This document shows, in pieces, positions 26,217 through 43,914 of a DNA stretch of 64,000 nucleotides. Both the position numbers and the translations under genes were made by a program. Where the stretch lies: the NCBI GenBank assembly GCA_035546095.1, contig DASZXB010000047.1:26905-90904 (forward strand), in the 5' to 3' direction. Each line of letters opens with the position of its first letter. The stretch's first letter is position 1. The stretch is from Verrucomicrobiia bacterium. GTDB lineage: Bacteria > Verrucomicrobiota > Verrucomicrobiia > Limisphaerales > UBA11358. A model generated the notes under the pieces. It saw only the letters and a program-made list of their open reading frames with translations, searched no databases and had not been told where the DNA came from.

Positions 26217-27746
26217 TCAGTTTCCAAAAGTCTCGGCGACGCTTTCGCAGATTACGGCGACGATTTTTTCCAATTGCGCCTGCGTCGTGCAATACGGCGG
26301 CATCAGCACAATCACGTTGCCAATCGGTCGCGTCAAAACACCGCGCTTGGCCATTTCATCGCACACACGGATGCCCGCGCGCTCGCGCAAATCAAACGGC
26401 TCGCGCGTCTGCCAATTTTTCACCAACTCAATTCCAGCAATCAAACCCACTTGCCGCATGTCGCCGACATTTGGCAATTGCCAAAGCGATTGCAATTCGT
26501 CGCGCAGATTTTTTTCCAGATTTTGCCGCGCGCGGATTGAATTTTCACTTTGCAAAATTTGCAGACTCGCCAACGCCGCGCTTGCGCCAAGTTGATTGCT
26601 GGTGTAACTGTGCCCGTGAAAAAACGTTTTGAACTTGTGATATTCGCCGAGAAAGGCGTTGAAAATTTCTTGCGTCGTCAACGTCGCTGCCATCGGTAGA
26701 TAACCGCCGGTCAAACCTTTTGCGAGACAGAGTAAATCCGGCTGCACGTTTTCGTGCTGGCAGGCAAATAACGTAGCGCAGGCATCTTGCCTGCGTTTTT
26801 TATCTTTCAAGTCCACAGGCTGGAAGCCTGCGCTACTTTCTCCAGTTCTTCCAAATCCGGTCATCACTTCATCCGCAATCAACAATGCGCCGTGTGCACG
26901 CGCAATTTCCGAAACGCGCTTGAGCCAGCCTACTGGTTGCGGAATCATTCCTGCTGCGCCTTGCATCAATGGCTCAAACACAAATGCGGCAAATGGATTT
27001 CCTTTTTTCTTTTGCGTGGAAAATTTTTGCTCCACTTTGCCGACACATTCAAAATGGCATTTACGGTAATTCCGCGCATCGTCGCGTTCCGGCTTCGCGC
27101 GATTGAATTTGCAACGATAACAATACGGCGATATCACTTTGTCCGATTTGAAAAGCAATCCGCCGTAAGCCTTGTGAAATAAATCAATGTGGCCGAGCGA
27201 AACCGCGCCAACCGTATCGCCGTGATACGCGCCATCGAGCGAAAGAAATCGAGGGTTTTTGATTTTCTTCGCTCGTCGCGAAAATTCATAAGCGAGTTTC
27301 AACGCGACTTCAAGCGCAGTCGAGCCGTCGTCGCTGAAAAAAACTTTGTCCAAATATGGAGCGCGGAACGCGGAGCGTGGAATTTTTACGCCGCGTTTTA
27401 TTTTTCTTGATTCCGCATTCCGCATTCCGCATTCCGCATTTTTAACGAGTTTTCCCGCCAACAAACTGGCCGGTTCATTCGCGAATCCAAGTGCGGAACT
27501 GTGCGCGATTTTTTTTAATTGCCGCGAAATCGCCGCGTTGATTTTCGGATGATTATGGCCGTGCAGGTTTGTCCAGATGGAAGAATTGGCGTCCAAAAAT
27601 TTTCTGCCGCGCGCGTCACGCAATTCCGCGCCTTTGCCTTCGACAATCACAATCGGCTCGCGTCTCAGCCAATCGCGCATTTGCGTGAACGGATGCCAGA
27701 CAAATTTGCGGTCGAGTTGCGCCAGTTTGTTCATCATCAAGTCCAA
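26217..27746 (-). CDS. bioA: adenosylmethionine-8-amino-7-oxononanoate aminotransferase with two in-frame insertions
   Basis: DEVMTGFGRTG...LFACQHENVQPDLLCLAKGLTGGY (PLP lysine region) and VFFSDDGSTA. At 509 aa it is longer than I recall typical BioA to be (about 430-460 aa), because of repeat-derived inserts. Confidence 0.85.
   Translation of the reverse strand: MDLMMNKLAQLDRKFVWHPFTQMRDWLRREPIVIVEGKGAELRDARGRKFLDANSSIWTNLHGHNHPKINAAISRQLKKIAHSSALGFANEPASLLAGKLVKNAECGMRNAESRKIKRGVKIPRSAFRAPYLDKVFFSDDGSTALEVALKLAYEFSRRAKKIKNPRFLSLDGAYHGDTVGAVSLGHIDLFHKAYGGLLFKSDKVISPYCYRCKFNRAKPERDDARNYRKCHFECVGKVEQKFSTQKKKGNPFAAFVFEPLMQGAAGMIPQPVGWLKRVSEIARAHGALLIADEVMTGFGRTGESSAGFQPVDLKDKKRRQDACATLFACQHENVQPDLLCLAKGLTGGYLPMAATLTTQEIFNAFLGEYHKFKTFFHGHSYTSNQLGASAALASLQILQSENSIRARQNLEKNLRDELQSLWQLPNVGDMRQVGLIAGIELVKNWQTREPFDLRERAGIRVCDEMAKRGVLTRPIGNVIVLMPPYCTTQAQLEKIVAVICESVAETFGN
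26773..26836. repeat. hairpin repeat element embedded in frame in bioA
   Basis: gtagcgcaggc...gcctgcgctac is an 11-bp terminal inverted repeat with inner hairpins gcaggca-tctt-gcctgc and caggct-ggaa-gcctg. It encodes ESSAGFQPVDLKDKKRRQDACAT. Confidence 0.7.
27358..27440. repeat. GGAATGCGG-family hairpin repeat embedded in frame in bioA
   Basis: ggagcgcggaacgcggagcgtggaat faces a (ttccgca)x4 heptamer run. It encodes ...ECGMRNAESRKIKRGVKIPRSAFRAP... Confidence 0.7.
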
Positions 27747-28937: not shown

Positions 28938-30166
28938 TTGCCGTCAATCATACTGGTGGAAATAGTTGACGAATGGTGCAATACGGCATCGTAAATGTCT
29001 GTAATTTTTCCGTCGAATGGAATCGCAATCAAATCGGCGAAAGCGTTTTCCAAGATTTCGCCGGTTTGCTCAGCCAGACCAAGCGCACGCGCGCCGTTTG
29101 CCGTCGCCATTCGCAAAATTGTTTGCGGTGGCAAATTAGGGTTGGTTTGGGCGAACAGTTGCATTTCGCGAAACAGATTTAATTCGGGATTTTCTTTGCC
29201 GTTTTTGCGAATGGTGGCAAGGCTATCCGTGCCGAGACAAATATTGATGCCGGATTTCAACAATTTTTCCACCGGAAATTTTAGGTGGCGAAAATAATCG
29301 TGGCTGCCCGGGCAATGAACGACGCTGGCGTTTCGTCGCGCGAGCAAATCAAAGTCAGTTTCGGCCAGATAATTCGCGTGAACGGCGAGAAAATTTTCTG
29401 CGAGCAGCCCGGCGCGCGCCAAATGTGCGACCGGCGAGCCGAGGCCGCAATCGGAATTATCACGTTCGTTTTTTTCCAACCAGCGAAACATTTCACCTTG
29501 CGCGCGCGCAAACATTTCAAATTCCTGTTCGGATTCGGAAACATGAGTGGTGATTCGCAATTTTTTTGCGCGCGCCATTTCCGCGCAAAGCTGGAGCAGT
29601 TCCGGCGAAGTGGAGTAGGGCGCGTGGGGCGACAATCCGGTGCGACAACGTGAATGCGCGAGTAAATTTATTTTTTCAACTGCATCGTCGAGAATTTCTT
29701 TTGGTTGACGTTTGGAGCGAACGCCGGTCATTTCCAGAAACGAAAAGATTCGCAGCGGCGTTGAATTCCAAACTTCGGGCAGTAATTCAGGAATGGCTTC
29801 AATATCAGCGACGGTTGTTGTTCCGGTTTGCAAAAGCATTTTTGCGCCGTCGAGCCATGATTTTGCGTAATCGGTATAACTCCACGCGGCTTTGGCGGCG
29901 AGCATTCGCGGAATCCAATCAGTGAATGTTTTTGGCGGCGATAATAATCCGACCATGTCGGTGTAATCCAAATGGCAATGGGCGTTGACCAGGCCGGGCA
30001 ATAAAATGGAATCGCCCAAATCAAATATTTTTTCGCCGGAACTTTTTGAGAAGTCATTCCACTTGCCGACGGCGCGGATTTTATTTTCAGAAATGATGAC
30101 CGCGCCGCTTTCAATCGGCGGTTGCGAAATCGGCAGGACAATTCGCGCACGAAGAATCACGGTCAA
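28919..30166 (-). CDS. metal-dependent amidohydrolase (chlorohydrolase/deaminase-like)
   Basis: PGLVNAHCHLD HxH metal motif in a 415-aa protein. The specific substrate cannot be called from sequence alone. Confidence 0.65.
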
Positions 30167-30516
30167 TCTCCGGTGGCGTGTCTGACATTTTTGAATTTGG
30201 CGGCGACTTTGTGTTTTTTCGCTTTGTGTTTATTGTGACGCTTGCGGATTTGTTGCTCGATTTTTTTAGTGACGCGGTCAACCGCCGCGTATAAATCGCT
30301 TTCGCGGTCTTCGGCAAACAAATCCGGCCCGCGCACGGCAAGGCGCATGGAGCAACTGAATTGTTTTTCGGGCACGCGCGTGTGGTCATGCTCAAGCGTG
30401 ACACGCGCATCTATCGCGCGTTTGTCAAAATGATCGAGTTTTTCCAAACGCTTGACGACATGGTCTTCAATGGCTTTAGTGAGCGTTATATTGTGCGTTG
30501 AAAGAATCAACTTCAT
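30163..30516 (-). CDS. hpf: ribosome hibernation promoting factor (short HPF/RaiA type)
   Basis: MKLILSTHNITLTKAIEDHVVKRLEKLDHF..., the sigma-54 modulation protein fold family. Confidence 0.85.
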   Translation of the reverse strand: MKLILSTHNITLTKAIEDHVVKRLEKLDHFDKRAIDARVTLEHDHTRVPEKQFSCSMRLAVRGPDLFAEDRESDLYAAVDRVTKKIEQQIRKRHNKHKAKKHKVAAKFKNVRHATGD

Positions 30517-30586
30517 AATGGTAATTTGCCGCCAGCACAGAAGAAAATCCAGTTTTTACTCAATTATCGGAGTTGGAAGGACTTCT

Positions 30587-30619
30587 AATTAAAGTTACAC
30601 AATGTTTGCTTAAATTAGC
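30587..30619 (+). repeat. left dif-like att junction
   Basis: aattaaagttacacaa-tgtttg-cttaaattagc. The left arm and tgtttg core are shared with 38785-38806. Confidence 0.6.
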
Positions 30620-30692
30620 CCCATGAACATTGAATAACATAAAAAAATATAAGCATTTATTTAATTAGAAAAAAAATGTTGACAGTCGAAAT

Positions 30693-32102
30693 TCAAGGAT
30701 AACTACCTTGCTGCACAGTTCCGCCGGCGGATTGCCCCATCCGATTGGCTATCGTTGAATTTCCAAACCCATTGACAGGGGAAGCCGTATTACGGCTTTT
30801 CCAATTTTGACCGATAACAGTCACAGGCTGGCTTTGCTGCAAAGATTGCTGATTATCTGTCTGAAGCTGGCTGTAATCAGGCTGATACATAGACGGAGCA
30901 GGGGAGTAAGCTATTTGAGAATTAAGCAAATGTTGAACTGGAAAGACTTCATTAAAAACTGTCACCTGACGCGGATTGATACGCTGGACTTCGCCAAACA
31001 TTGAATCCGCCGTCCGACCGTCAGACAGTTGCACAAGAATATGATGAGGGAAATAAACGTATCCAGTGCATACGACCAGATTGGTGTCTGTATTTTCAGA
31101 AGTGCTTTTAGGAAGCACAGCTTGTTGCTGTGCGCTATCGCGCAGAGAGTCTTCAGTTTGTGCAGGGCTATTAGTCCTGCGCGCGGACAGCGCAACTTGC
31201 TGCGCGGGTTTGGAAACTTTCTTCGGACTGTGCATCATCCACGAAGTGAATGTTCCAAGTAGTTTCGGAGCCTGTGAAAGAGCAAAAATTATCGCAACCG
31301 CCAGTATCAAAATACCCCACCAAGGGAGTCCCTTCCTGCGTCCACCTATATCGGCCACCATCCGGCCAGACAAACCAACACCAGCAGAAGTGTCATACGT
31401 TTGCGCAATGCCTTTTTTATCAAGCCGAAAAAGTTTGCGTGTCATCGGCTCTTGCTGACTACCAGTTGGCGCGCATTCGTAAATCGCCACGCTAAACACA
31501 TCCGGCTGCCTAAACATCCCAATCGAAAGTTTAGAATGATTGCGAACAACCCAAAAGTCTTGCGCGACTCGTTGCACAGCCGGATCAATCTGCTTCGTGT
31601 GCTGTGTGACTATCAAAACATCGTCACCAAATTTACGGTGTTGGGCGTTGTAAAATAAAACGCCCTCACCTGTGCGCTGCCAATTCCTCGAGCCATAAAA
31701 TTTCCAAGCCTCGTCCACCACATACATGCAAGGCCCAGACGTCGCACCGTTAGCTGTGTCAAAGTCTATAATGATTTCGTCGCCGTCCCTCGTTTTCTTG
31801 GCATTGTAATTCGACTTAACGAGCTTGCCATCCACAACACGCCAGAGATAAAAAGCCGCGATTTCTTCATCCGGCAATATATGAATACGCTTGTCACAGT
31901 CGAAATGCTTACCGAACGCTTTAAGCAAGTAGCTTCGCAATCCTATCATGGGCTGATGGCTGCCATTGACCCACGGCTCGACCCGCACCGCCAAGTTCGT
32001 GATTATCGGCCTTGTCCCTTGCAAAAGCTCATCTATCACTTGTTGCATTGCCAACAGTCCCTTGCCGCCACCGGGTTTGCCCGTTATGAAACTTATCGCC
32101 AT
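30693..32102 (-). CDS. Zot/pI-like inovirus assembly ATPase (phage A)
   Basis: Walker A GKPGGGKG, Walker B MYVVDEAW and a single TM (WWGILILAVAIIFAL). The C-terminal 169 aa are nearly identical to phage B Zot. Confidence 0.85.
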   Translation of the reverse strand: MAISFITGKPGGGKGLLAMQQVIDELLQGTRPIITNLAVRVEPWVNGSHQPMIGLRSYLLKAFGKHFDCDKRIHILPDEEIAAFYLWRVVDGKLVKSNYNAKKTRDGDEIIIDFDTANGATSGPCMYVVDEAWKFYGSRNWQRTGEGVLFYNAQHRKFGDDVLIVTQHTKQIDPAVQRVAQDFWVVRNHSKLSIGMFRQPDVFSVAIYECAPTGSQQEPMTRKLFRLDKKGIAQTYDTSAGVGLSGRMVADIGGRRKGLPWWGILILAVAIIFALSQAPKLLGTFTSWMMHSPKKVSKPAQQVALSARRTNSPAQTEDSLRDSAQQQAVLPKSTSENTDTNLVVCTGYVYFPHHILVQLSDGRTADSMFGEVQRINPRQVTVFNEVFPVQHLLNSQIAYSPAPSMYQPDYSQLQTDNQQSLQQSQPVTVIGQNWKSRNTASPVNGFGNSTIANRMGQSAGGTVQQGSYP

Positions 32103-32286
32103 TCTATTTCGTTTTCCTTTCCAAATCAGTCGAGGCCGGAAGTCCGCCACCTTTAACGAACCCAACGACTCTCATCCGCTTCTACTGGTTGCTTCACGGC
32201 TTTGTCCCGAAGCTTTCATCGTCGTTTCCGGCCTCAAAAATTCTTTCCAATATCCATCTCCGTTTTCAAAGCGTTTTTTGACTTCA

Positions 32287-32479
32287 GATTTCTGCCCGCC
32301 GCCTGCTCCGGCGAAGAAACAACACATAAACTTAGAGCCTGCGCGCGGCAACAAGCAGTCGTCACGCCAGAGTTTCCCCCTCCACCCTCCGAAACTCTGT
32401 CATGCCGACTGCTCGCTGCCGTGCTCGTAAGTCAGTTGTTTCTCCGCCTCCGCACAGGTGAAGGCGGCGGGCAGAAATC
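32287..32479. repeat. 18-bp perfect inverted repeat (extendable imperfectly to about 40 nt) enclosing about 157 nt
   Basis: gatttctgcccgccgcct (32287-32304) faces aggcggcgggcagaaatc (32462-32479). Secondary arms ggcgaagaaacaac / gttgtttctccgcc lie inside. Confidence 0.75.
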
Positions 32480-32499
32480 CGAAGCCAAAAAAAAAGCTT

Positions 32500-32763
32500 A
32501 TGAAAATCATCAATTGGATATTGGACAGAATGTTTAACGAGCCGGAAGACCGCGAAGAAAAGTTCCGGGAAGGCATACGAGAAGAATACAAGCGGAGCGG
32601 ATTCGAGTCGGGTATCGAATTCTGCAAAGGTGACTGGAATGGCGTCGAGTGGCTTGACTACCTTATTAGCGAAAATATGATAATAGAATTCGTTGCGTTC
32701 AAAGACGGCATGGAGCAAGGTATCCGCCGCTACACAGCAGGATTGAAAGGAGGTGCGTTGTGA
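32500..32763 (+). CDS. hypothetical protein, cargo gene 1 of phage A (opposite strand to the phage genes)
   Basis: Acidic/basic balanced 87-aa ORF (alternative GTG start at 32458). No counterpart in phage B. Confidence 0.55.
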   Translation: MKIINWILDRMFNEPEDREEKFREGIREEYKRSGFESGIEFCKGDWNGVEWLDYLISENMIIEFVAFKDGMEQGIRRYTAGLKGGAL

Positions 32764-32951
32764 TCCTCCAAAAATTACCCAAAGCGTCTGACGAAAAATT
32801 ACTCGAAGAGCTTGTAAGAGCTGCTCAAAGTATCGAAAAAAACACAAAAATACACGCACCGAAATATCCAGAGTTGCACTGGAAAAAAATGTCAGGCTCA
32901 CTCTGGTGGATTGCCAAAATAACAGAAGAAATGCGTAGGCGTTGCACATAA
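32760..32951 (+). CDS. hypothetical protein, cargo gene 2 of phage A
   Basis: GTG start overlaps the upstream stop (GTGA) and is preceded by a ggagg Shine-Dalgarno at a spacing of about 6 nt. 63 aa. Confidence 0.6.
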   Translation: MILQKLPKASDEKLLEELVRAAQSIEKNTKIHAPKYPELHWKKMSGSLWWIAKITEEMRRRCT

Positions 32952-33076
32952 TCACTTACCGAACACGAACTTCGCAAATTCGCGTTCGGTTTCGTCCAAC
33001 ACTACCCACCAGCGCAGCGATTCAAGCGCAGATTGCCAAGTCGAATAATACATAAAACGACGCTTGTCCTCAAAAA

Positions 33077-33316
33077 TTATACAAACATTCGTAAGTTGAA
33101 CTTCTTGTCGAGCCATAAAGCTATCGCAAACGTTATCAAAACAGTCAAAAATGCAGGTTCAAAAGAATCAAAAAACCAGCCATACCACGTCAAATGACTT
33201 GCCAACACGTCCGTTAGTATCACCTGATGCCACCCATCGGCGAACATCTCCTGCGTAATACACATTTGGTTCAGAGCAACAACATTCGTATCATAGTAAG
33301 CAGGGTTAATATCCAT
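33077..33316 (-). CDS. small hydrophobic phage protein (phage A)
   Basis: 79 aa from the ATG at 33316, 1 nt after the upstream stop. Has C-terminal TM segments. Confidence 0.45.
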   Translation of the reverse strand: MDINPAYYDTNVVALNQMCITQEMFADGWHQVILTDVLASHLTWYGWFFDSFEPAFLTVLITFAIALWLDKKFNLRMFV

Positions 33317-33317
33317 A

Positions 33318-33509
33318 TCAAAAGTCGCTTGAACCAGACCCGCCAGTGCGACGCGCAAGCCTCAAAACAAACCCAAAACCAAGAAGGCCAAGTGCAAAGG
33401 CAAATCCACCCCAAAAAAGACCGGGCTGCGTCGTAGCATCATAACTGTTACCAGATGGGTCAGTAACGTAGTTCGTTATCTGCGCGAGAATTTCAATACT
33501 TGAAAGCAT
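33318..33509 (-). CDS. small coat-like membrane protein (phage A)
   Basis: The C-terminus GFAFALGLLGFGFVLRLARR is homologous to the C-terminus of the phage B ORF at 44425-44733 (FGFTVCGFGWVLRMARR). Confidence 0.55.
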   Translation of the reverse strand: MLSSIEILAQITNYVTDPSGNSYDATTQPGLFWGGFAFALGLLGFGFVLRLARRTGGSGSSDF

Positions 33510-33574
33510 AATAAAAAATCAATCCGGCAACTATCATACCACACACAAAATCAACATAAGGATCAAAGGTCATA

Positions 33575-33970
33575 TCAAGCACCAGGTAAATATTTAATTA
33601 CTCTACTCATGACAACTGCAAGATAAATCGAGGTAAAACCCCAAACTAAAAAAGCAATGTAAAGTCCAAAAGCAAACTGAAAAGGAAAACAAGCATCAGC
33701 CAAAGCCAAAGCACCAGCAGGAGCGCCAGCCAAAGGATTAGAATTAATTACCTCACGCAGACCCATGCCAATCATCCCTGTAAAAACAGCCCCCAAAAAC
33801 ACACCCCAAGCAGTCAAAACAGCAATTTGAACAGCAGCAAAAACAACCGCACGCGCAACCGTAGTCGCACCAACAGCAGCCAAAGCAGGAATGTAAGCCT
33901 TGGTAACAGACCAAATACGTTGAAGAAACAAAAGAATACGAGAAAGAATAACAGGCATATCAAGCTTCAA
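33575..33970 (-). CDS. g6p-like multi-TM virion/assembly protein (phage A)
   Basis: The block GLREVINSNPLAGAPAGALAL is homologous to phage B 43915-44421. The position between g3p-like and Zot is typical of pVI. Confidence 0.6.
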   Translation of the reverse strand: MKLDMPVILSRILLFLQRIWSVTKAYIPALAAVGATTVARAVVFAAVQIAVLTAWGVFLGAVFTGMIGMGLREVINSNPLAGAPAGALALADACFPFQFAFGLYIAFLVWGFTSIYLAVVMSRVIKYLPGA

Positions 33971-35393
33971 CCTGCCTTTCTACTGTAGCAACAGCTTGTG
34001 TCTGAACACCACGCGCTTGATTCATGATTTCAACAAGCTTAACAGAATGAACGAGAATACGTTGCAAGTAATACAAAGCCAAAATCCACATGATGAAATT
34101 GCGACAGAGCGAAAAAATAGAAGCAAAAGAACTATGCAAAGGATTCAAATCCATAACGCCGCCGCGACCAAAATCAATAGTCATATCAGGAATAGACCCG
34201 ACATCAATAACTGGCCCAACTATACCAGATACCCAAGACTGATAATCAGTTTCCCAACCCGATAATTCAACAGAAGCAGAACCTGAATGAGCCAAAGCAC
34301 CGGAATAATTCGTGTCACCAAATTGCTCAACCAAATTAGTATAATCCGGTTCATCATCATTTGTTGAAAATCCAGAAACATTTGTTGAAATAAGATTACT
34401 CGATAAATCGGACAAAACATTTGAAATCCCTTGAAGTGTCTGGTTACTAGGCCAATTTTGAACCCAAACATTCGAGGATAAAGAAACTATATTCGATGAA
34501 CCAGCGCCACCGCCACCCATACTACCGCTAATATTTGAGACAACTATCACTCGACCCTCCAAATCCTGCCGAACTGCGTAAATCTGCCCAATCGCATTGG
34601 TCCAGTAGTTGAATGCCTGTTGCTGATTCAAAAGCATTTGATTGTTTTGACTGGCAAGCATATTGAAGCCAGCCATATCTATATTCGTTTGCGCTGCGCT
34701 CTGATAACTTATCGGGCCTTGAGTCACTAGATTAGAAGAACTTTGCTGATTTATAGAGTTTACTCCTTGCTGCGAAATGTCGTTTCCCGCCGAATAACTG
34801 CCTGAATTATTCAAATCCAAATTCGTAATAATGTAACCGCCGTTGCCATCGGAAAGAGTCGCAGCCTGCGTTATATCATAACCCCATGAAAGGGTGTCAG
34901 AAATAGGATTAACAGCAGGATAAGTGTAAGTAGCAAACTGGTTAGGAAATATAAGCTGTTGATACTGCAAAACTCCATTCTGCTTAAACCAAGCAAAAAC
35001 AGGAGTCGTCTCGTAATTAAAAACCGTGCGGGAAACAGCCAAAGAAGAATTTGTCCCACCGGGATAAGCAAAAAGGTTAACAGGATATCCCTTCGCAAAA
35101 GGGACAACGGAACTTACAATGACAGGAGAAGAACCATTTATAGCCTGATACGAAAGAGCGACACCCATCGTCAAACTCCCCCAAGAAGAATCATTGGCCG
35201 AACCAGAAGATGTCTGTCCAACATTAAAAGATTGCGGAGAAGGAACAACAGTAACGAAATAAACATGATTTGTGTAAAGAAGAAGTTGCAACGAAACGAG
35301 ATTAGTTGAACCAGCATTAAGTATGCTAAAAGTAGTAGTCGCTCGAAGCGAAACACAAATCAGCAAAAAGAAAATCGAAAAAAGCTTACGCAT
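33960..35393 (-). CDS. g3p-like minor coat/adsorption protein (phage A)
   Basis: Signal peptide MRKLFSIFFLLICVSL, Gly-rich linker GSMGGGGAGSS and a C-terminal hydrophobic anchor. Follows the major coat gene. Confidence 0.7.
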   Translation of the reverse strand: MRKLFSIFFLLICVSLRATTTFSILNAGSTNLVSLQLLLYTNHVYFVTVVPSPQSFNVGQTSSGSANDSSWGSLTMGVALSYQAINGSSPVIVSSVVPFAKGYPVNLFAYPGGTNSSLAVSRTVFNYETTPVFAWFKQNGVLQYQQLIFPNQFATYTYPAVNPISDTLSWGYDITQAATLSDGNGGYIITNLDLNNSGSYSAGNDISQQGVNSINQQSSSNLVTQGPISYQSAAQTNIDMAGFNMLASQNNQMLLNQQQAFNYWTNAIGQIYAVRQDLEGRVIVVSNISGSMGGGGAGSSNIVSLSSNVWVQNWPSNQTLQGISNVLSDLSSNLISTNVSGFSTNDDEPDYTNLVEQFGDTNYSGALAHSGSASVELSGWETDYQSWVSGIVGPVIDVGSIPDMTIDFGRGGVMDLNPLHSSFASIFSLCRNFIMWILALYYLQRILVHSVKLVEIMNQARGVQTQAVATVERQVEA

Positions 35394-35400
35394 GGAAAAA

Positions 35401-35425
35401 GGGCAGGGGATTTAAGCCCCTGCCC
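35401..35425 (-). terminator. stem-loop between the coat and g3p-like genes (phage A)
   Basis: gggcagggg-atttaag-cccctgccc, a 9-bp perfect stem. Confidence 0.6.
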
Positions 35426-35433
35426 AGAATGAA

Positions 35434-35634
35434 TTACTTGACCGTGCGCTTCGCCAAACGAAGAATCACATAGAACCCAACAATACTAATCGTAATTGGA
35501 GCAATAGTGGCAAACGCTGTATTAGCATTTGTGGCGATTGTCGTAGCATCAGGATCACCCGAAGCTGCAAACAATACAACAGGAGCCAACACCAAAAAAC
35601 CAACACCAACTTTCTTCAATATTTTCATTTTCAC
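35434..35634 (-). CDS. major coat protein (g8p-like, phage A)
   Basis: 66 aa. Signal peptide ...VLFAASG, acidic N-terminus DPDATT, hydrophobic core IAPITISIVGFYVIL and basic tail RLAKRTVK. Confidence 0.8.
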   Translation of the reverse strand: MKMKILKKVGVGFLVLAPVVLFAASGDPDATTIATNANTAFATIAPITISIVGFYVILRLAKRTVK

Positions 35635-35724
35635 CTTTCAGTTACATCAAAGCGGAATTGCTTTGATTGAAAGAAATTATGGCAAGATTGTTGCTAACTG
35701 TGCAGTTACCAAAAACGCAACAAC

Positions 35725-36162
35725 ATGGACATACAAGAATACCAAAACCAAATGAATCAAATTCTTCAGAACTACCAAACTGAAGAAAACAAAGCCGTAA
35801 CAATCGAAACCCTAGCAAGCATAATAGGAATAATCATTACATGGTGGATAATTTTCAAATTCCTTAAAGCAATCGAAAATATCAGCGAAGAAATCAAACT
35901 ACAAAGAAACGCATTTGAAAAAGCTAATAATCTTCCAAAGACCGAAAGACAACAAAACGCTGGCCGGCTAAAGTCTTTGTTTCTAACCTACCAGAAGAAA
36001 TCAAAAAACGAACACGCGAAGACGAAACATCTAACAACCAAGCCGCCAACCCAACAGGAACAAGACCAAAAGGGGAATCAGAAACAACAAGACGAAAAAG
36101 TCGAATACGCTCAACACGGTTCGTCAAACGACGCGAAATATCAGCCGAAATTTCAATCATAG
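35725..36162 (+). CDS. antisense-oriented TM protein ORF (phage A), extent uncertain
   Basis: The N-terminal roughly 66 codons lie in the HTH-coat gap and include a TM segment (IIGIIITWWIIF). The remainder overlaps the HTH gene antisense. The analogous ORF in phage B is 41577-41978. Confidence 0.3.
   Translation: MDIQEYQNQMNQILQNYQTEENKAVTIETLASIIGIIITWWIIFKFLKAIENISEEIKLQRNAFEKANNLPKTERQQNAGRLKSLFLTYQKKSKNEHAKTKHLTTKPPTQQEQDQKGNQKQQDEKVEYAQHGSSNDAKYQPKFQS
35924..36160 (-). CDS. excisionase/MerR-like HTH protein (phage A)
   Basis: LAAWLLDVSSSRVRFLISSGRLETKTLAGQRFV is homologous to phage B 41573-41827. ATGA-coupled to the Zn-ribbon gene. Confidence 0.65.
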   Translation of the reverse strand: MIEISADISRRLTNRVERIRLFRLVVSDSPFGLVPVGLAAWLLDVSSSRVRFLISSGRLETKTLAGQRFVVFRSLEDY

Positions 36163-36399
36163 CATTTCCTTATGTTTCCGTTGATCAAATAATTCTGGTG
36201 TAGTTGCCTTATCAATTTCTTCACGCATCTTCCGAAACCAATACTCTCCCAATTGCTTTCGTCGTATCGAGGCAGGAATAAAATGACAGGCCAGATGTCC
36301 ACACACAGGGCAGGGGACATTCTGCGACGGACGTTCATACGTCAGAAAAACAACGTCGTCACACTCATCGCAAAACCAATGACCTTTCAATTTAGACAT
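36157..36399 (-). CDS. Zn-ribbon protein (phage A)
   Basis: CDECDD...CPVCGH four-Cys motif. Nearly identical to phage B 41082-41321. Confidence 0.7.
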   Translation of the reverse strand: MSKLKGHWFCDECDDVVFLTYERPSQNVPCPVCGHLACHFIPASIRRKQLGEYWFRKMREEIDKATTPELFDQRKHKEML

Positions 36400-36430
36400 A
36401 GTTCATCTTCAAGCAATCGGTTTCGCCAGT

Positions 36431-36451
36431 CCGCCGCGCTCCGCGCGGCGG
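36431..36451 (-). other. conserved GC hairpin with a GGA loop (candidate ori, packaging or terminator signal; phage A)
   Basis: The coding strand reads ccgccgcgc-gga-gcgcggcgg, a 9-bp stem. The same core CCGCGC-GGA-GCGCGG occurs in phage B at 41019-41045. Confidence 0.5.
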
Positions 36452-36598
36452 CCTACCGAACCCGAATCACCCTTGCCTTTCACACGTGAGAGAATTCTCA
36501 CAACCTGAACGATGCTATAGCCCGTCAGCCGGTTTAATGAAGCCGTATAGCCACATGCGCTGGTGTCCAGCAGCCGACTGTAAATGCAGTTTGTTACG

Positions 36599-37243
36599 CT
36601 ATCGTCGCAACATTGACTGTTCAAACGGAGACCGTCTTACTTCGCCTTGCCGTGTGTTACCGGCGTGTCTGTCCTCCTCAACTCGTTTGTATCCAGTTAA
36701 GCGCTTATTAGGAGTCAATTCCCCATTTATGCCGCTGAACAATCCGTCACGATCCCGATGACCAAACCGGCTACGGTTCTCCATGTGACGTATCAAACTC
36801 ATGGACAGCATCACGTCACAACGTGTTCCAAACTTTCCAAGTTCATACCAGTTCGCACCCGCGTTGGTATAACTTGCGTCAACTCCCTTGAGCACATACT
36901 CGACACCAGTAAGAGTCGAGTCGTAGACACGCACGCGAGCTTGACCACCACCAAATCTTTCCCAAATTTTCATAAAGGAAAAACAGGTGGCTTCGCTCAC
37001 GGCGGAAGCCGGAAACGCTGCGATTAGTGCATGGAAATGCGGGCGGTGCGTCAGTTCACCTTTTTCCTTACGCAACACCCACAAAATTTTAAGAAAATGA
37101 ACCCCGAAATTGTCCGCCTGTTCGCGCATCATCGCGAAGTACATCTTGAGCCAAACAGCTTCCGTCACTTTCAGCGTTCTAAACGTAAAAGTGCAGAAGA
37201 ACTGCCACTCGACGGTTTCCAGCAGATGTTTCTCAGGGTTCAT
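36599..37243 (-). CDS. HUH rolling-circle replication initiator (phage A)
   Basis: Motif order FCTFTF, HFHALI (HUH) and GVEYVLKG (catalytic Tyr). Confidence 0.7.
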   Translation of the reverse strand: MNPEKHLLETVEWQFFCTFTFRTLKVTEAVWLKMYFAMMREQADNFGVHFLKILWVLRKEKGELTHRPHFHALIAAFPASAVSEATCFSFMKIWERFGGGQARVRVYDSTLTGVEYVLKGVDASYTNAGANWYELGKFGTRCDVMLSMSLIRHMENRSRFGHRDRDGLFSGINGELTPNKRLTGYKRVEEDRHAGNTRQGEVRRSPFEQSMLRR

Positions 37244-37252
37244 AATCGCAGA

Positions 37253-37540
37253 CTACTTTTTGTCCAATGGAGTGCTGTAAATGCGGCCAGAGGAGCGCAG
37301 CCGAGTCCCGAACGGCGGAGGCCGCAGTTCAATGACGTCCAGCTCGATTTCCTTGTCCAACATCTTGCCAGCATATTTCTCCTTTTCTGGCTCCGACAGA
37401 ACGTAGTCGAAGTTGTCCTTCAGCCGCGCTCCGCTCGGACACAAATCCTGACAGGTAAAGACTTGTGTTTTCACAAGCCCTTTCTTGCCGGTGTATTCGT
37501 CGGGCTGGTCAGAGACAATCCTCACTTTCATCCTAGGCAT
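37253..37540 (-). CDS. small phage protein, possible ssDNA-binding protein (by position only)
   Basis: 95-aa ORF adjacent to Rep. No motif recognised. Confidence 0.3.
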   Translation of the reverse strand: MPRMKVRIVSDQPDEYTGKKGLVKTQVFTCQDLCPSGARLKDNFDYVLSEPEKEKYAGKMLDKEIELDVIELRPPPFGTRLRSSGRIYSTPLDKK

Positions 37541-37949
37541 TTTGAGTCCCTTTCATTTTTTGTTTTCTTCGTGCTGTTGATTTGTCTCCCTTGCTTGCAC
37601 GAACGGGCAGGGGAGAAAGTGAAGGCGAAACTTCATCAAGTTTCTGAAGAAATAACCTATCCGGCATGTCAGCAACGTTAGTCTGGTCCACTAGAGACGT
37701 ATTACGCTTATTGAGGACCGAGCCGCGAAGTGTATTACGTTTCCTCGGACCTAAAACACGATTTCCAGCACGAAATGAAGTCGAAAAGTCTTGGGATTTC
37801 GGAACACCTAATCTTTTGCGTTTGTTCCACTCACGATGAATCAGACAACGAATCCATTCAGCAAAATTCTCGAATTGACAGAATTCCGACGACAAAATTT
37901 CATCTATCATCTTCTTTTCTCGGTCGTTGACACGGAAAGTTAAAATCAT
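37533..37949 (-). CDS. ribbon-helix-helix (CopG-like) protein (phage A)
   Basis: MILTFRVNDREKKMIDEIL...IHREWNKRKRLGVPKS is nearly identical at the N-terminus to phage B 40355-40687. Confidence 0.65.
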   Translation of the reverse strand: MILTFRVNDREKKMIDEILSSEFCQFENFAEWIRCLIHREWNKRKRLGVPKSQDFSTSFRAGNRVLGPRKRNTLRGSVLNKRNTSLVDQTNVADMPDRLFLQKLDEVSPSLSPLPVRASKGDKSTARRKQKMKGTQNA

Positions 37950-37967
37950 GATGTATTACAGGTTAAA

Positions 37968-38492
37968 TCAGGCAGCTTCGGGAGGTTGATGGCAATCTAC
38001 GACAGCCAAACTACGCTCAAAACGATTCTCACCAGTGATAAACTCAGAAAGCTTTTCAAGTTCAGTTCGGATAAACTTTATGTCCGGCAAAAGATTAGAA
38101 GGCTCTTGCGGATGGCACTGGCTGAAAAGCCGCTTGAATTGCCGACGAAGTTCAGCACATTCAAGTTCAGTCAATGAAGCGTGGTAATCATGAACGAGAA
38201 TCTGTAACAGTCCGATGTTTTCCAAATAGAAAAGTGTTCGGCGAGCAGAATCTTTGTTGCCAGCATTAGCACGGTCAAATGCGTCCTGAAGCCTATCCAT
38301 TACATGCTGATAAAGCCGTCGCATACGACAACGAAAATCATTTTCCGGTATGGCAAAAAAAGCGCGTGATTCAGCTATGCGCTCAAGTTGCGTCTTGGTA
38401 AGACCCCAAGGAGTTTTGCCTTTGCCAGCACGCGCACGCCAACGGCCATTAGCCATGCGATAATGAGTTTCTGTTGTAGGTTCGGTAGTCAT
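37968..38492 (-). CDS. hypothetical phage regulatory-module protein (phage A)
   Basis: ATGA-coupled to the upstream ORF. Shows weak similarity to phage B 39059-39430 (QIL..Y...L...E...LR......CHP). Confidence 0.5.
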   Translation of the reverse strand: MTTEPTTETHYRMANGRWRARAGKGKTPWGLTKTQLERIAESRAFFAIPENDFRCRMRRLYQHVMDRLQDAFDRANAGNKDSARRTLFYLENIGLLQILVHDYHASLTELECAELRRQFKRLFSQCHPQEPSNLLPDIKFIRTELEKLSEFITGENRFERSLAVVDCHQPPEAA

Positions 38493-38728
38493 TTGAATAC
38501 CGGAAACAAAGTTAATACCAAAACCTGAAAACAAATTCCCAAACCGAAACCAACAACCAAACCAAGAATTAAAGAAGCAACTAAATGAATAGATTTAGGG
38601 CAAGGAAACAAAACTTTGCCTTCAGAAGTTACAACAGTTTGACCGCCTTCAAGCGTCAAAATTGTGCGACGTGCCTTGGAATCAAACTTGACCCCGATAA
38701 CGCGCTTGCAACCGTAGAATTCGTCCAT
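38489..38728 (-). CDS. small C-terminally TM-anchored protein, first gene of phage A
   Basis: 79 aa with TM LVASLILGLVVGFGLGICFQVLVL. Confidence 0.45.
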   Translation of the reverse strand: MDEFYGCKRVIGVKFDSKARRTILTLEGGQTVVTSEGKVLFPCPKSIHLVASLILGLVVGFGLGICFQVLVLTLFPVFK

Positions 38729-38784
38729 GCAACCGCAGTTATAGCATGTTTTTTGAAAAAGAGACCGTTTTGAAAGACCTCAAC

Positions 38785-38817
38785 AATTAAAGCTACACAA
38801 TGTTTGTTATATTTAAT
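38785..38817 (+). repeat. middle dif-like site between the two prophages
   Basis: aattaaagctacacaa-tgtttg-ttatatttaat. The left part matches 30587-30608 and the right part matches 46437-46453. Confidence 0.6.
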
Positions 38818-39058
38818 TAGTCTATTTTCAAAAACCTGTGGTAAAACTTGCGTGTGCAAGACGCGCAAACAGCGTTAAAACAAGTAAAGCTACAATTTTG
38901 TGGCCTTCAGCGATTGCAGAACGGCACTTATATGCCGCTTTGGAATTTGATGCAAGCTGCGGACGGTCTTGCACTTCATTCAACATATTCGGAGAACACA
39001 CTTCGGCTGAAAGGGTTTTTTGTTCCAATTCCGACAGGATATAAGCGACAAGATTTGT

Positions 39059-39430
39059 ATGAACCTCTCTGAACTACAAACGAACGCTTCATTTCAGGCT
39101 TCGCTTTATTCGCTCTATAATTTTACGAAAATGCGGGTGGAAAGTGCTCGGTGTTCTGCGCGTCATGGTCATAAAGATGAAGCCTCTAATTTTCTTCGTT
39201 ACGTTCGCGGTGCTTCCATTGTTCAAATTTTGAAGTGTTACCAAAATGACGGTGTGCTGGACATAGATTTGTCGCATTTGGAATGGCAACTTCGCGAATT
39301 GGAAAATGATTGTCATCCAATGACGCAGCCGGATTTTAAGGATGATTTCGCCTTGATACTGTTGAGATTGGATTCTTTGGCTCACTGTCTTTCAAAACTT
39401 CAACCTGCACAAACCCGTAATATACTATGA
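39059..39430 (+). CDS. hypothetical phage regulatory-module protein (phage B)
   Basis: First of a chain of ATGA-coupled genes. An alternative TTG start lies at 39020. Confidence 0.5.
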   Translation: MNLSELQTNASFQASLYSLYNFTKMRVESARCSARHGHKDEASNFLRYVRGASIVQILKCYQNDGVLDIDLSHLEWQLRELENDCHPMTQPDFKDDFALILLRLDSLAHCLSKLQPAQTRNIL

Positions 39431-39618
39431 AACATTGTAACTGTGAAATTTGCCAACGTAGGCGAGATAAGTTTTCTTCTTTTCGTTTTTTGGGGATGCA
39501 GGTTGGTTCTGGCTCTTTGCGTGAAGAGTATTTTGTAATCTTTTTTTTTCAAATTTTTATGTTCTCTGTTGGTGTTAAATTTGGTTTGGAATTTTTCTTT
39601 TCACTTATTCAACAATGA
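39427..39618 (+). CDS. small Cys-rich/TM protein (phage B)
   Basis: ATGA overlaps at both ends (39427 and 39615). Has a CNCEIC motif and a hydrophobic C-terminus. Confidence 0.45.
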   Translation: MKHCNCEICQRRRDKFSSFRFLGMQVGSGSLREEYFVIFFFQIFMFSVGVKFGLEFFFSLIQQ

Positions 39619-40358
39619 AATATCGCCCAGTAGATGTATTGAGAAAGTTCGTGTTACGCAAGTGTATCGAGCATTTGGTCGTAACCAGTGAACACGCCGT
39701 CTGGTTCAACCTGACTTTTTGGGAGAATGTTACCGAAAAGCCATACGCTAATAAATGTTGGGACAAATTCTCGAAAGCACTTCGCAAGCAACATCCGGGC
39801 TTTCGTTTTGTTGGCGTATGGGCGCGTCAAGCGCGTGGCGCATGGCACATTCACGGCGTTTGTAATACGCGATTTGATATAGAGTGGCTTCGGCGCAAGG
39901 CCATGCGATGTGGCTTCGGCACGCAAATGTTCGTCAAGGAACTTGATTCTGATCCAAAGACGCCGGAGAAGATTTCTCGGTATATCACTGGTTATGTCAC
40001 GGATAAAAACTGCCTTGATTCTGAACGCGATAAAGGAGTTCGCCGCACAATTTTTGTCGGTAAAAATGTCAAGGTCATTGATATGCGCTACAAGTCCGGC
40101 CTGAAACGAGTAGTCAGTCGAGGTCGTGAAATTCTCCAAGACGCGGATTCTACCTTAACGAAATTTGAGCGTGAATTTTCTCCGCCTGAACATCGCAAGA
40201 AAGTATTTGAGACATGGGGCGACTGGTATCGCCGTTGTCGTGCGCATTGGTTTGATTTGGGCTGGGCTTCTTTAACGGATGAGGAGCGTGAGGAAATTCT
40301 TCAATTAGATTATTACACGCAACGCTATTTGGATACTGGTCAATGGAGTTACGTATGA
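39615..40358 (+). CDS. HUH rolling-circle replication initiator (phage B)
   Basis: Motifs FNLTF, AWHIHGVC (HUH) and YITGYVTDK. Not obviously an orthologue of the phage A Rep. Confidence 0.7.
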   Translation: MKYRPVDVLRKFVLRKCIEHLVVTSEHAVWFNLTFWENVTEKPYANKCWDKFSKALRKQHPGFRFVGVWARQARGAWHIHGVCNTRFDIEWLRRKAMRCGFGTQMFVKELDSDPKTPEKISRYITGYVTDKNCLDSERDKGVRRTIFVGKNVKVIDMRYKSGLKRVVSRGREILQDADSTLTKFEREFSPPEHRKKVFETWGDWYRRCRAHWFDLGWASLTDEEREEILQLDYYTQRYLDTGQWSYV

Positions 40359-40687
40359 TTTTAACTCTGCGTATAAACGATGAAGAATTGAAGATGATAG
40401 ATGAAATTCTGTCGTCTGAATTCTGTGAATCCGAAAATCGCTCTGAATGGCTTCGGCTTTTGATTCATCGTGAATGGAATAAACGTAAAAGGCTTGGTGT
40501 TCCCAAATCTGTAGACTTTGCGACTTCGTTTCGTTCGTTTGGTGGCCATATTTATGGTCAACCTTTTAAGTCTCGTATGTCTGGTGGCGTAATACACCGA
40601 CGCCGGCGTGACAAGATTTCTCCCCTGCCCGTTCGTGCGGCTGGTGGAGACAAGTCAACAGCACGAAAAACTAAAACTGTAAAATAA
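40355..40687 (+). CDS. ribbon-helix-helix (CopG-like) protein (phage B)
   Basis: MILTLRINDEELKMIDEIL...IHREWNKRKRLGVPKS. ATGA-coupled to Rep. Confidence 0.65.
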   Translation: MILTLRINDEELKMIDEILSSEFCESENRSEWLRLLIHREWNKRKRLGVPKSVDFATSFRSFGGHIYGQPFKSRMSGGVIHRRRRDKISPLPVRAAGGDKSTARKTKTVK

Positions 40688-40689
40688 CT

Positions 40690-41010
40690 ATGGCACAGGA
40701 AGCAAAAACAGAACTGCCGAAACCGTTGCTTGAAGCATTGGCTAAAGGTCGAATTGTCTTTTATGGCGAATTTCGGCGGGGTCAAGCGGTTGAATTCTCA
40801 AGCAAAGGCGGCAAGGTATATCATCAGACAAAATGCACCGTTGAAACGGATACCGGCACGATAACTGTGACGGAATTCATGCCGGATGGGGTTGATTGGC
40901 AAAACTGGAAAGCACCGTTCACACGTGGGCAAATGGTCTATGGCGTATGTCGCACAGTCGAGGAACAAAGTGGTGTTCAGGTAACATCGGCTAAATTGTA
41001 TGCCGTATAG
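40690..41010 (+). CDS. small phage protein, possible ssDNA-binding protein (by position only)
   Basis: 106-aa ORF in the replication module. No motif recognised. Confidence 0.3.
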   Translation: MAQEAKTELPKPLLEALAKGRIVFYGEFRRGQAVEFSSKGGKVYHQTKCTVETDTGTITVTEFMPDGVDWQNWKAPFTRGQMVYGVCRTVEEQSGVQVTSAKLYAV

Positions 41011-41018
41011 TAAGGCAA

Positions 41019-41045
41019 AGGCTACCGCGCGGAGCGCGGTGGCCT
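41019..41045 (+). other. conserved GC hairpin with a GGA loop (phage B)
   Basis: aggctaccgcgc-gga-gcgcggtggcct, a 12-bp stem including one G-U pair. Confidence 0.5.
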
Positions 41046-41081
41046 ATGCTTGATTAAAGGTGAAACATCTCACTTTTGGAA

Positions 41082-41321
41082 ATGAAGATAAAAGGACATT
41101 GGTTTTGTGATAATTGCGATGATGTCGTTTTCCTGGCGTATGAACGTCCGTCGCAGAATGTCCCCTGCCCTGTGTGTGGACATCTGGCCTGTCATTTTAT
41201 TCCTGCCCCGATACGACGAAAGGAATTGGGCGAGTATTGGTTTCGGAAGATGCGTGAAGAAATTGATAAGGCAACTACGCCTGAATTATTTGATCAACGT
41301 TCGCACAAGGAAATGTTATGA
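41082..41321 (+). CDS. Zn-ribbon protein (phage B)
   Basis: CDNCDD...CPVCGH. Nearly identical to the phage A copy. Confidence 0.7.
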   Translation: MKIKGHWFCDNCDDVVFLAYERPSQNVPCPVCGHLACHFIPAPIRRKELGEYWFRKMREEIDKATTPELFDQRSHKEML

Positions 41322-41446
41322 TGAAAGATTCTACTTTTTGGCTTTTAATTTTGTCTTTAATTATGTGTTCAATTTTTGCTTTTTCTTTTGGTTGGTGGGC
41401 AGGTCGGCATGAATTGATGGTAGAATTATTTAATAATTTGAAATGA
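41318..41446 (+). CDS. 42-aa single-TM protein, below the ORF-track cutoff (phage B)
   Basis: My translation is MMKDSTFWLLILSLIMCSIFAFSFGWWAGRHELMVELFNNLK. The ATG overlaps the Zn-ribbon stop (ATGA). Confidence 0.4.
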   Translation: MMKDSTFWLLILSLIMCSIFAFSFGWWAGRHELMVELFNNLK

Positions 41447-41572
41447 ATTTCCAACATCGCATGAGGCGTTGTTGTGGCGCATTGGAGCGGCGTCTGTTAC
41501 GTGTGCAATAGCTGTGACAGGTCGGATTTAAGCGCGGTTGGTAACCTCCGTAAAAGCCAGCCATTAAATTTT

Positions 41573-41978: not shown

Positions 41979-42105
41979 ATGTGGTTATTTCTAACTGTGT
42001 TAATTGTCCACTGTGGCTTTTTGCCACGTTACATAACAGCACAAATTTTGCCAAAATTCCTTTTAGTCAAAGCAATTTCGCTTTGATGTAACTGAAAGGA
42101 AACAA

Positions 42106-42360: not shown

Positions 42361-42373
42361 TTAAATTTTCTTT

Positions 42374-43907: not shown

Positions 43908-43914
43908 ATATTTT

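Follow-up and report, generated by a model that had tools for sequence, protein, structure and literature searches.

Why does one of two neighbouring filamentous phages carry close to 0.9 kb of DNA, with its genes in reverse orientation, directly ahead of its assembly ATPase? The question arises from a stretch of 64,000 nucleotides (the window) of a Verrucomicrobiae metagenome-assembled genome. The window contains two inovirus-type prophages arranged head to head. Phage A extends on the minus strand from about 38.5 kb down to the stop codon of its zot gene at 30693, phage B on the plus strand from about 39.6 kb to its zot stop at 46377. Upstream of zot, phage A holds two short plus-strand open reading frames (ORFs), ORF1 and ORF2, antisense to the phage genes, and a large inverted repeat. 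A first-pass annotation, made from the sequence alone, had pointed to about 0.9 kb without a counterpart in phage B and had considered it an accessory cassette. We propose, with about even chances of being right, that the segment is a lineage-specific accessory (moron) insertion in prophage A which arose by illegitimate recombination at the start codon of zot.

The segment specific to phage A comprises 851 bp (32100..32950). It is situated between the stop codon of a conserved small ORF of 54 aa (32952..33116, minus strand), which in the relatives directly precedes zot, and the ancestral start of zot A, the gene of the pI-type assembly ATPase (30693..32102, minus strand). Zot-family ATPases are recognized in both phages by Pfam (PF05707, E 6.9e-13 in A and 4e-5 in B). 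Using Zot A as a query, 12 related loci with 44-70% identity were found, 2 in IMG/VR and 10 in JGI metagenomes. Neither ORF1 nor ORF2, nor a competing minus-strand ORF of 197 aa, has a tblastn match in any of them. The accessory segment is specific to phage A, as had been claimed: neither phage B nor any of the 12 related loci has it. The equivalent spacing in phage B had been described as a gap of about 140 nt. It is no gap: a 50-aa ORF (44726-44878, the counterpart of the 54-aa ORF) fills it and overlaps the zot start at 44875 with a GTGA. Among these phages and loci the small ORF preceding zot has 46-54 aa. By tblastn, the 54-aa ORF has a homologue in three loci (L048, L049, and L051), where it stops precisely at the zot start. 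The small ORF overlaps zot as ATGA in these three and in L050/L057; in L002 a 46-aa ORF abuts zot.

The junctions can be reconstructed to the nucleotide. In the relatives the sequence is ...TTCGGCAAATGATTTCATT..., i.e., F-G-K-stop, the ATGA overlapping the zot N-terminus M-I-S-F-(I/L)-T-G-K, and (A/G)TGAT-type overlaps are present at the position equivalent to the insertion site of phage A. In phage A one reads, in phage sense, ...FVFGK-stop-GTGAT, the insert ending with ...GAAAGGAAAACGAAATAGAATG, and then GCGATAAGTTTC. Taken side by side, the right side is ...TTCGGTAAGTGAT, followed by the insert, and on the left side the insert end ...GGAAAGGAAAACGAAATAGAATG is followed by GCGATAAGTTTCATAACGGGC. 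The ATG of zot A (32100-32102) and its GAAAGG leader come from the insertion, and the N-terminus of Zot A is M-A-ISFITGK compared to MISF(I/L)TGK in the relatives. From these alignments we conclude that the ancestral (A/G)TGAT of the zot start now appears on both flanks of the insert. On the right it is GTGAT (32955-32951, minus strand), within which the 54-aa ORF stops and zot formerly started; on the left it is GCGAT (32099-32095, minus strand), now zot codon 2 and the start of codon 3. The old zot start codon has become codon 2 (GCG, Ala), and the insert contributes a new ATG. This 5-bp flanking repeat may be a target duplication or just microhomology; an identity of 4 in 5 positions is weak for either. 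Zot A has an intact reading frame and an intact Walker A motif across the insertion. The preservation of the frame, of the Walker A motif and of a new in-frame ATG argues that phage A stayed under selection after the insertion event.

Which strand of the insert is coding? ORF1 (32500..32763, plus strand) has 87 aa, or 101 aa from a GTG at 32458, and would encode an acidic, soluble protein. ORF2 (32760..32951, plus strand) has 63 aa and would encode a basic, predicted helical protein. Both are orphans. The GTG start of ORF2 overlaps the stop of ORF1 (GTGA) and is preceded at a distance of 6 nt by a ribosome-binding-like motif, GAAAGGAGG (32745..32753, plus strand), with GGAGG at 32749-32753. 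The frequency of GGAGG in the window is about 0.2 per kb per strand. The first-pass annotation had listed the two ORFs, their overlap and the GGAGG, and each is where it was placed; the 197-aa ORF on the minus strand, which it also mentioned, is present as well (32362..32955) and is co-oriented with the phage genes.

Codon usage was scored with a host codon model trained on 25 long host ORFs. In a leave-one-out calibration, 135 real 75-codon segments scored 0.241 ± 0.125 bits/codon and 228 stop-free shadow frames -0.157 ± 0.153. ORF1 scores 0.204 bits/codon with the host model and 0.054 with a phage model. This is host-like; such a value is reached by 1% of the shadow frames, which corresponds to a likelihood ratio of about 19. 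The scores of ORF2 (0.066 host, -0.20 phage) are ambiguous and resemble those of bona fide phage genes, e.g., zot A (0.057, host model). As a reference, the small phage genes flanking the insert score 0.26-0.40 bits/codon with the phage model, real small phage genes overall 0.26-0.55. The 197-aa ORF (0.015 host, -0.078 phage) fits neither model and looks non-coding. Further, the plus-strand GC skew is positive only across 32450-32900. The NCBI pipeline calls ORF1, to which the hypothetical protein VHG71_06550 [Verrucomicrobiae bacterium] is identical, and the gene finder of the Logan assemblies calls both plus-strand ORFs on contig L001. By the codon score of ORF1, the GC skew and the two independent annotations the plus-strand pair is thus preferable to the 197-aa frame, in agreement with the first-pass annotation. 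ORF1, host-like in its codon usage, is probably a genuine gene, and ORF2 is a plausible one.

One might argue that the 197-aa frame, whose GTGA overlaps the stop of the 54-aa ORF, is the real gene. Its length is considerable for a chance frame, and its start coincides with the zot start position of the relatives. Nevertheless, we regard this as extremely unlikely. The seemingly coupled GTGA start is a mere relic of the old zot start. Across ORF1 the frame is the codon-aligned antisense frame, and its richness in F and L is accounted for as a mirror of the E and K codons of ORF1. The codon scores given above are far from those of real small phage genes. In a set of 5.8 G proteins it has no homologue, no self-match and was never called as a gene, and it has no match in Pfam, PHROG, PADLOC or NCBIfam. 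Homologues in which this frame is conserved, which had been named beforehand as a counter-argument to the plus-strand pair, were looked for in the 12 relatives and in the set of 5.8 G proteins, and none were found.

What, then, is the inverted repeat? An 18-bp perfect repeat with a stem of about 40 nt had been reported and interpreted as a possible regulatory structure upstream of the cassette. The 18-mer GATTTCTGCCCGCCGCCT is indeed present at 32287-32304 (plus) and 32462-32479 (minus) with 0 mismatches (chance expectation about 0.05 matches; two in 0 of 100 shuffles). The extent of the stem needs to be corrected: an imperfect palindrome of 445 nt (32166-32610) surrounds the 18-bp repeat, which forms its core. 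Each arm has about 220 nt, and no other inverted repeat in the window is as large. The alignment is continuous from 32391-32610 against 32376-32166 (plus strand right of the centre against the reverse complement of the left). The inner part has an alignment score of 74 compared to 14.1 ± 2.1 for shuffles, the outer part 50 compared to 15.8 ± 2.2, and 0 of 500 shuffles reach 50.

The right arm (32391..32610) consists of the ORF1 leader (32391-32499) and of ORF1 codons 1-37. The centre is a loop of 14 nt (32377..32390) with the plus-strand sequence CCCCTCCACCCTCC; the packaged strand has GGAGGGTGGAGGGG here. The left arm (32166..32376) was delineated by alignment, shuffle tests and three-frame translations. 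When its outer part (32166-32268) is read on the minus strand, ORF1 codons 1-37 reappear as an inverted pseudo-copy in decay, which has frameshifts and stops and no longer has the ATG. In three-frame translation its WILERIFEAGNDDESFGTK-stop matches WILDRMFNEPEDREEKFREG of ORF1. The best-preserved hairpin is the inner one (32274..32492), which has the perfect 18-bp arms and 79 Watson-Crick pairs and is bounded by stem-extending T6 and A9 runs. In the inner stem about 86% of the positions form Watson-Crick pairs, in the outer stem about 80%, a similarity which is compatible with one duplication event followed by decay. Between 32131-32147 and 32538-32553 there is a short direct similarity of marginal significance (matched by 15 of 1000 shuffles), which would be weak support at best for serial template switching. 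The palindrome stops 66 nt short of the left end of the insert, leaving a unique tail. An upstream regulatory structure is not what these data describe, as the duplicated 445 nt include the first 37 codons of ORF1 together with their decayed pseudo-copy; judged by its anatomy, the palindrome is a fold-back duplication and not a compact operator.

An assembly artefact can be dismissed because the palindrome is imperfect and because it is reproduced in an independent Logan assembly (L001, 3,502 nt), which is 100% identical across the palindrome. Quasipalindrome-type duplications by fold-back or template switching share its main features: an inverted copy of an adjacent functional sequence, a short unique central spacer and a similar decay of the arms. 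They are usually tens of bases long. In contrast, the arms in phage A have about 220 nt each and have persisted to a divergence of about 15-20%.

A different origin would be a non-autonomous mobile element, derived from a miniature inverted-repeat transposable element (MITE) or from an insertion sequence (IS), comprising the palindrome or the whole insert and producing a 5-bp target duplication at the zot start. The imperfect flanking repeat and the long hairpin-forming, MITE-like body would fit. We consider such an element highly improbable since the palindrome is internal, no terminal inverted repeats are seen at the insert ends by inspection, no transposase is present and the palindrome is built from the coding sequence of the cassette itself. 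Moreover, the window, as the part of the source genome that was searched, has a single copy of it, and the 18-mer finds 2 loci in IMG/VR and 42 loci in 185,579 GTDB species-representative genomes, all of them single-arm chance matches in unrelated coding contexts, none with two arms. The whole insert has no blastn match in plasmid or phage collections (distant-mode blastn against 72,556 plasmids), and against the rest of the window neither blastn nor tblastx finds anything.

The codon usage of ORF1 is host-like and not phage-like, which points to acquisition from a bacterial genome. The segment is absent from the zot junction in phage B and in L002, L048, L049, L050, L051, and L057, and its codon usage is unlike that of the flanking phage genes. 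In these respects it corresponds to phage morons, i.e., the lambdoid concept and the variable genes of inoviruses (PMC6813254), which likewise are present in one phage, absent at the junction of relatives, distinct in codon usage or strand skew, and consist of small genes unrelated to virion production. Inoviruses often carry accessory genes, toxin-antitoxin genes and members of orphan families (Roux et al., 2019, PMC6813254). Unlike typical morons, which are found between modules or at a genome end, the insert of phage A is located inside the morphogenesis operon at the zot start codon, lacks a recognizable promoter/terminator pair, carries a 445-nt fold-back and gives a start codon back to the gene that it had interrupted.

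The sole good plus-strand promoter-like site is inside ORF1, about 80 nt upstream of ORF2 (TTGACT-16-TATGAT, 32654..32681, a 10/12 sigma-70 consensus match only). A weak sigma-70-like site on the minus strand (TTGAAA-18-AAGAAT, 9/12, 32240..32269) is positioned in the left arm and faces zot; it, too, is a consensus match only, of which 1.4 are expected by chance in the scanned region. The leader of ORF1, CCAAAAAAAAAGCTT-ATG, is A/T-rich like that of most host genes. Across the start regions of host and phage genes (e.g., 5640, 23869, 25439, 42106, 32102), the host genes are mostly without Shine-Dalgarno motifs and have A/T-rich leaders. GAAAGG is present ahead of several phage genes (coat B, pVI A, zot A and a 95-aa ORF) and ahead of ORF2. 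In the zot leader there is also a perfect 10-nt inverted repeat (32132-32141 and 32226-32235, GAGGCCGGAA/TTCCGGCCTC), which competes with the main palindrome for the segment 32226-32235. Transcripts starting within the left arm would carry it as a local stem, situated about 20 nt upstream of the GAAAGG of zot.

Does the fold-back have a function of its own? Folded as DNA, a 231-nt segment is far more stable than its shuffles on both strands; the energies are -66.5 kcal/mol (z -10.6) for the plus and -80.7 kcal/mol (z -12.8) for the minus strand. As RNA the values are -240.8 kcal/mol for the minus and -211.9 for the plus strand. The whole 476-nt region folds into a single hairpin on either strand. 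If the core genes are on the packaged strand, as in known inoviruses, the minus strand would be the packaged one, and its stability advantage amounts to 14-29 kcal/mol. In the inner stem the minus strand has 7 G-T wobbles, not counting an eighth at the loop centre, and the plus strand has 1; in the outer arms they are 3 and 4, i.e., without bias. The wobble bias is not significant alone, and C-to-T deamination of packaged single-stranded DNA (ssDNA) could be an alternative source of it.

The hairpin might be a functional ssDNA element of the packaged strand: an additional site for complementary-strand initiation that resembles single-strand origins (sso) or single-strand initiation sites (ssi), a packaging-type signal, or a promoter like Frpo. 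In favour are the higher stability on the packaged strand as DNA and RNA, the 7:1 wobble excess, and the position of antisense genes directly downstream of the hairpin, for which the entering strand is the template, as with Frpo (PMC11541004). We regard this as unlikely. The hairpin is absent from phage B and from the 12 relatives, which speaks against a core role in replication or packaging; the outer arms derive from coding sequence, of which they are a decayed copy; the wobble bias is missing there; and the inner stem has no -35/-10 pair of at least 8/12 on either strand. A complementary-strand origin had been mentioned as an option before, and the structure is in fact more stable on the packaged strand, which is in favour of it; on the other hand it is missing from every relative, and a different hairpin is common to A and B. 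Long imperfect hairpins on an ssDNA strand are shared by the Ff packaging signal, the minus-strand origin, plasmid single-strand origins and the Frpo of the F-plasmid, and in the latter downstream genes are templated by the ssDNA strand, as here (PMC11541004; Masai and Arai, 1997, as cited there). The known packaging signals have 20-78 nt; the palindrome of phage A is several times longer, unconserved in relatives, devoid of inner-stem -35/-10 elements, and its arms contain a coding pseudo-copy. An Rfam scan of 30000-48000 (E ≤ 1) returned no family.

The hairpin which A and B have in common is GC-rich with the core CCGCGCGGAGCGCGG (A 36417-36465, B 41019-41045). In both prophages it has an equivalent position directly upstream of an 80/81-aa zinc-ribbon-like ORF. 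In A it is part of the most structured intergenic region outside the insert, in B it belongs to one of several regions that are structured to a comparable degree. Its stem resembles a consensus motif, GGX(A/-)CCG(C/T)G, which was reported for packaging signals of Xanthomonas filamentous phages (10.1101/2023.12.30.573655). This hairpin is a candidate packaging signal, origin or terminator and, going by its conservation, the better candidate for a core cis-element than the fold-back.

Other known hairpins were compared and rejected. An intrinsic terminator does not fit, as on both strands the T-run precedes and the A-run follows the stem, and the scan yielded 0 terminator-like sites. An invertible promoter would be pointless because the segment between the 18-bp repeats is itself palindromic, and inversion alters almost nothing. 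By inspection, R''/R' core motifs of an integron attC are missing at the stem base, as is a TAGCGT-type loop motif of ssoA. A CTX-type XerCD attP hairpin would be at the prophage end, and the palindrome is 1.4 kb inside; dif-like motifs were not formally searched.

The Frpo variant deserves a closer look. In conjugative plasmids RNA polymerase uses Frpo hairpins to transcribe leading-region anti-defence genes from the entering single strand, and the genes downstream of Frpo are on the transferred (T-) strand (PMC11541004). By analogy, the packaged strand would form the 445-nt hairpin upon infection, and host RNA polymerase, initiating in its duplex stem, would transcribe ORF1-ORF2 from virion DNA before complementary-strand synthesis, which would suggest an immediate-early anti-defence or exclusion function like that of plasmid leading-region genes. 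The geometry is right: the hairpin 32166-32610 is directly upstream of the 5' end of ORF1 and overlaps it, and no genes other than ORF1 and ORF2 have the presumed packaged strand as their template. Yet the best site in the stem found by a relaxed scan (32269-32240, 9/12) would initiate downstream of the ORF1 ATG, and distant-mode blastn of the insert against the 72,556 plasmids shows no similarity to Frpo or ssi. We consider this variant very unlikely.

What do ORF1 and ORF2 encode? In line with the earlier remark that no family motif was recognized, ORF1, ORF2 and the 197-aa ORF have no usable match in Pfam, PHROGs, PADLOC, NCBIfam and PDB sequences at E ≤ 1; the sole PHROG trace for the cassette proteins is an 8-residue stretch with E 0.055. 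A word-indexed search of 5.8 G clustered proteins returned self-matches only for ORF1 and ORF2, and so did an exhaustive phmmer search against 1.84 G representatives for ORF1. Structure prediction with a subsequent fold comparison had been recommended and gave nothing usable. Single-sequence AlphaFold2 models are of low confidence (pLDDT 56 and 61), all Foldseek matches against the PDB have E > 0.4, and both models and matches were discarded as noise.

The borderline match was obtained with tblastn against phages and plasmids, where ORF2 has none. ORF1 is 31% identical over 62 residues (E 0.03) to an 81-aa hypothetical protein of Aeromonas Plateaulakevirus (e.g., 4L372D_147, QEG08611.1), and hhalign with a profile of four Aeromonas phage members gives a probability of 79%. 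The proteins are of similar length and have the pattern E-x-F-R-x-G-I-R ... G-x-x-x-C-K-G in common. However, part of this common motif is not conserved inside the Aeromonas family, the family has no known function and no PHROG, and the genes downstream are unrelated to ORF2. The evidence was judged insufficient for homology.

The gene pair had been likened to toxin-antitoxin or other addiction modules, and this identity is not supported. In a type II module the acidic ORF1 protein would neutralize the basic ORF2 protein and the inverted repeat would be an autoregulated operator. Two small co-oriented genes with a 4-nt overlap (GTGA), one acidic and one basic, are suggestive; there is nothing in favour beyond gene size, overlap and opposite charge. 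Toxin-antitoxin pairs are known cargo of inoviruses, and many inovirus antitoxins are without a family (PMC6813254; PMC12328805). The type II pairs listed in PMC6813254 and the KKP module of Pf6 (PMC12328805) are likewise small accessory pairs in an inovirus prophage beside a second related inovirus. Still, we think that a toxin-antitoxin module is quite unlikely. In the searches at E ≤ 1 no toxin, antitoxin, helix-turn-helix (HTH), ribbon-helix-helix (RHH) or AbrB signature was detected in ORF1 or ORF2, there are no homologues, the models are as poor as stated, and the presumed operator is a 445-nt duplication with coding sequence and not a short palindrome. Compared with the known inovirus modules, the pair shows no family similarity and, with 87 + 63 aa and no DNA-binding domain detected by sequence, is atypical; among type II toxins one of 63 aa would be exceptionally short.

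From these observations a course of events can be proposed for the accessory insertion. A foreign segment of 851 bp would have entered precisely at the zot start codon by illegitimate, microhomology-type recombination, leaving the imperfect 5-bp duplication (GTGAT/GCGAT). It would have brought the two-gene unit ORF1-ORF2 on the strand opposite to the phage genes. The first 220 nt or so of the unit, i.e., the leader and 37 codons of ORF1, may then have been copied in inverted orientation via a fold-back or template switch, creating the 445-nt palindrome; this duplication may have come with the insertion or later. Fold-back and template-switch events are expected in a rolling-circle ssDNA replicon. 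The pseudo-copy together with the 66-nt unique tail would now serve as the zot leader and supply the new ATG, and zot would no longer be translationally coupled to the upstream 54-aa ORF.

Consequences for expression can be envisaged on both strands. Translation of ORF2 would probably be coupled to ORF1 via the GTGA overlap and GAAAGGAGG, and/or ORF2 would be driven from the promoter-like site inside ORF1. The cassette proteins would be made convergently in the lysogen. A phage-sense read-through transcript would have to cross about 450 nt of antisense cassette and thereafter a duplex-forming element of about 200 bp. Because of these obstacles the assembly ATPase would be throttled or separately regulated, i.e., the insert would probably lower the expression of zot or place it under separate control. 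Most likely, by analogy with inovirus accessory genes, among which such activities are common, the cassette has an activity of the host-conversion or exclusion type.

Several points weigh against an accessory insertion that carries expressed genes. The codon score of ORF2 is ambiguous. No sigma-70-like promoter was found upstream of ORF1, and the scanned region has 0 terminator-like sites. The expression of ORF1-ORF2 and the effect on zot are predictions. The flanking repeat matches at 4 of 5 positions and could be due to chance. Finally, the 7:1 wobble excess and the higher stability on the packaged strand may be signs that the hairpin is not just a neutral scar.

The most sceptical view would be that nothing here is functional, prophage A being in decay, the insertion junk from a replication accident and the ORFs chance frames. 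That ORF1 and ORF2 are orphans in every database searched, that ORF1 is devoid of promoter or terminator signals, that the left arm is visibly decaying and that the ORF2 codon score is indecisive would all be in keeping with it. But a codon score like that of ORF1 is matched by just 1% of shadow ORFs, GAAAGGAGG is well placed before ORF2, and zot has preserved its frame, its Walker A motif and an in-frame ATG, from which selection after the event was argued above. We leave the sceptical view a small chance and prefer the accessory insertion.

The two prophages are colinear and mosaic in DNA, segments of 69-91% identity alternating with unrelated stretches. The Rep of phage B is above the threshold of the ORF2/G2P-type family (34.2 bits vs 27.8, E 3.1e-8); that of phage A has a sub-threshold match to this family only (18.0 bits, E 0.0036). 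The final 525 nt of zot (30692-31215 in A, 45855-46378 in B), up to the stop codon, are 89% identical, and in their 5' two-thirds zot A and zot B are dissimilar in nucleotide sequence. Such a pattern points to an exchange between the co-resident prophages, by recombination or gene conversion, or to a shared end used for attachment or as a junction region.

In phage A a 93-aa ORF (33077-33358, minus strand) overlaps the adjacent ORFs of 63 aa and 54 aa. A counterpart is missing in phage B and in L051, the closest relative, where the equivalent spacing is about 95 nt. With good codon scores (0.148 host model, 0.256 phage model) it is a possible second gene of phage A that is specific to its lineage. 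Each phage also has a long ORF on the opposite strand, 35725-36162 (plus, 145 aa) in A and 41577-41978 (minus, 133 aa) in B. Both have a hydrophobic segment and overlap an HTH-like ORF of 78 and 117 aa, respectively; a C-terminal ...DAKYQPK stretch, coinciding with conserved DNA, is all they share. They could be antisense genes or shadow frames. The next-largest hairpins of the window are at 3613-3692 and 26770-26839, with arms of 26 nt and 24 nt that are 88% and 83% complementary. The former is in a gap of the listing of ORFs with at least 120 aa, the latter overlaps a 509-aa ORF (26217-27746).

What does the locus mean for these phages? This kind of insertion is already known, an ordinary phage add-on; the particular proteins and the fold-back are new. 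Two orphan proteins are added to the very large pool of uncharacterized inovirus accessory genes, and this in Verrucomicrobiota, a phylum where inoviruses are barely studied. For co-resident inoviruses, accessory modules are known to mediate cross-talk (PMC12328805). If the hairpin drove expression from single-stranded virion DNA, the leading-region strategy of plasmids would be extended to phages; what speaks for this is the right geometry only, without promoter hexamers in the inner stem. If the accessory insertion is the true reading, phage A would represent a cleanly reconstructed case of cargo acquisition by a filamentous phage precisely at a start codon, in which an ATG from the insert restored the essential gene that had been interrupted, and a large fold-back survived in an ssDNA replicon.

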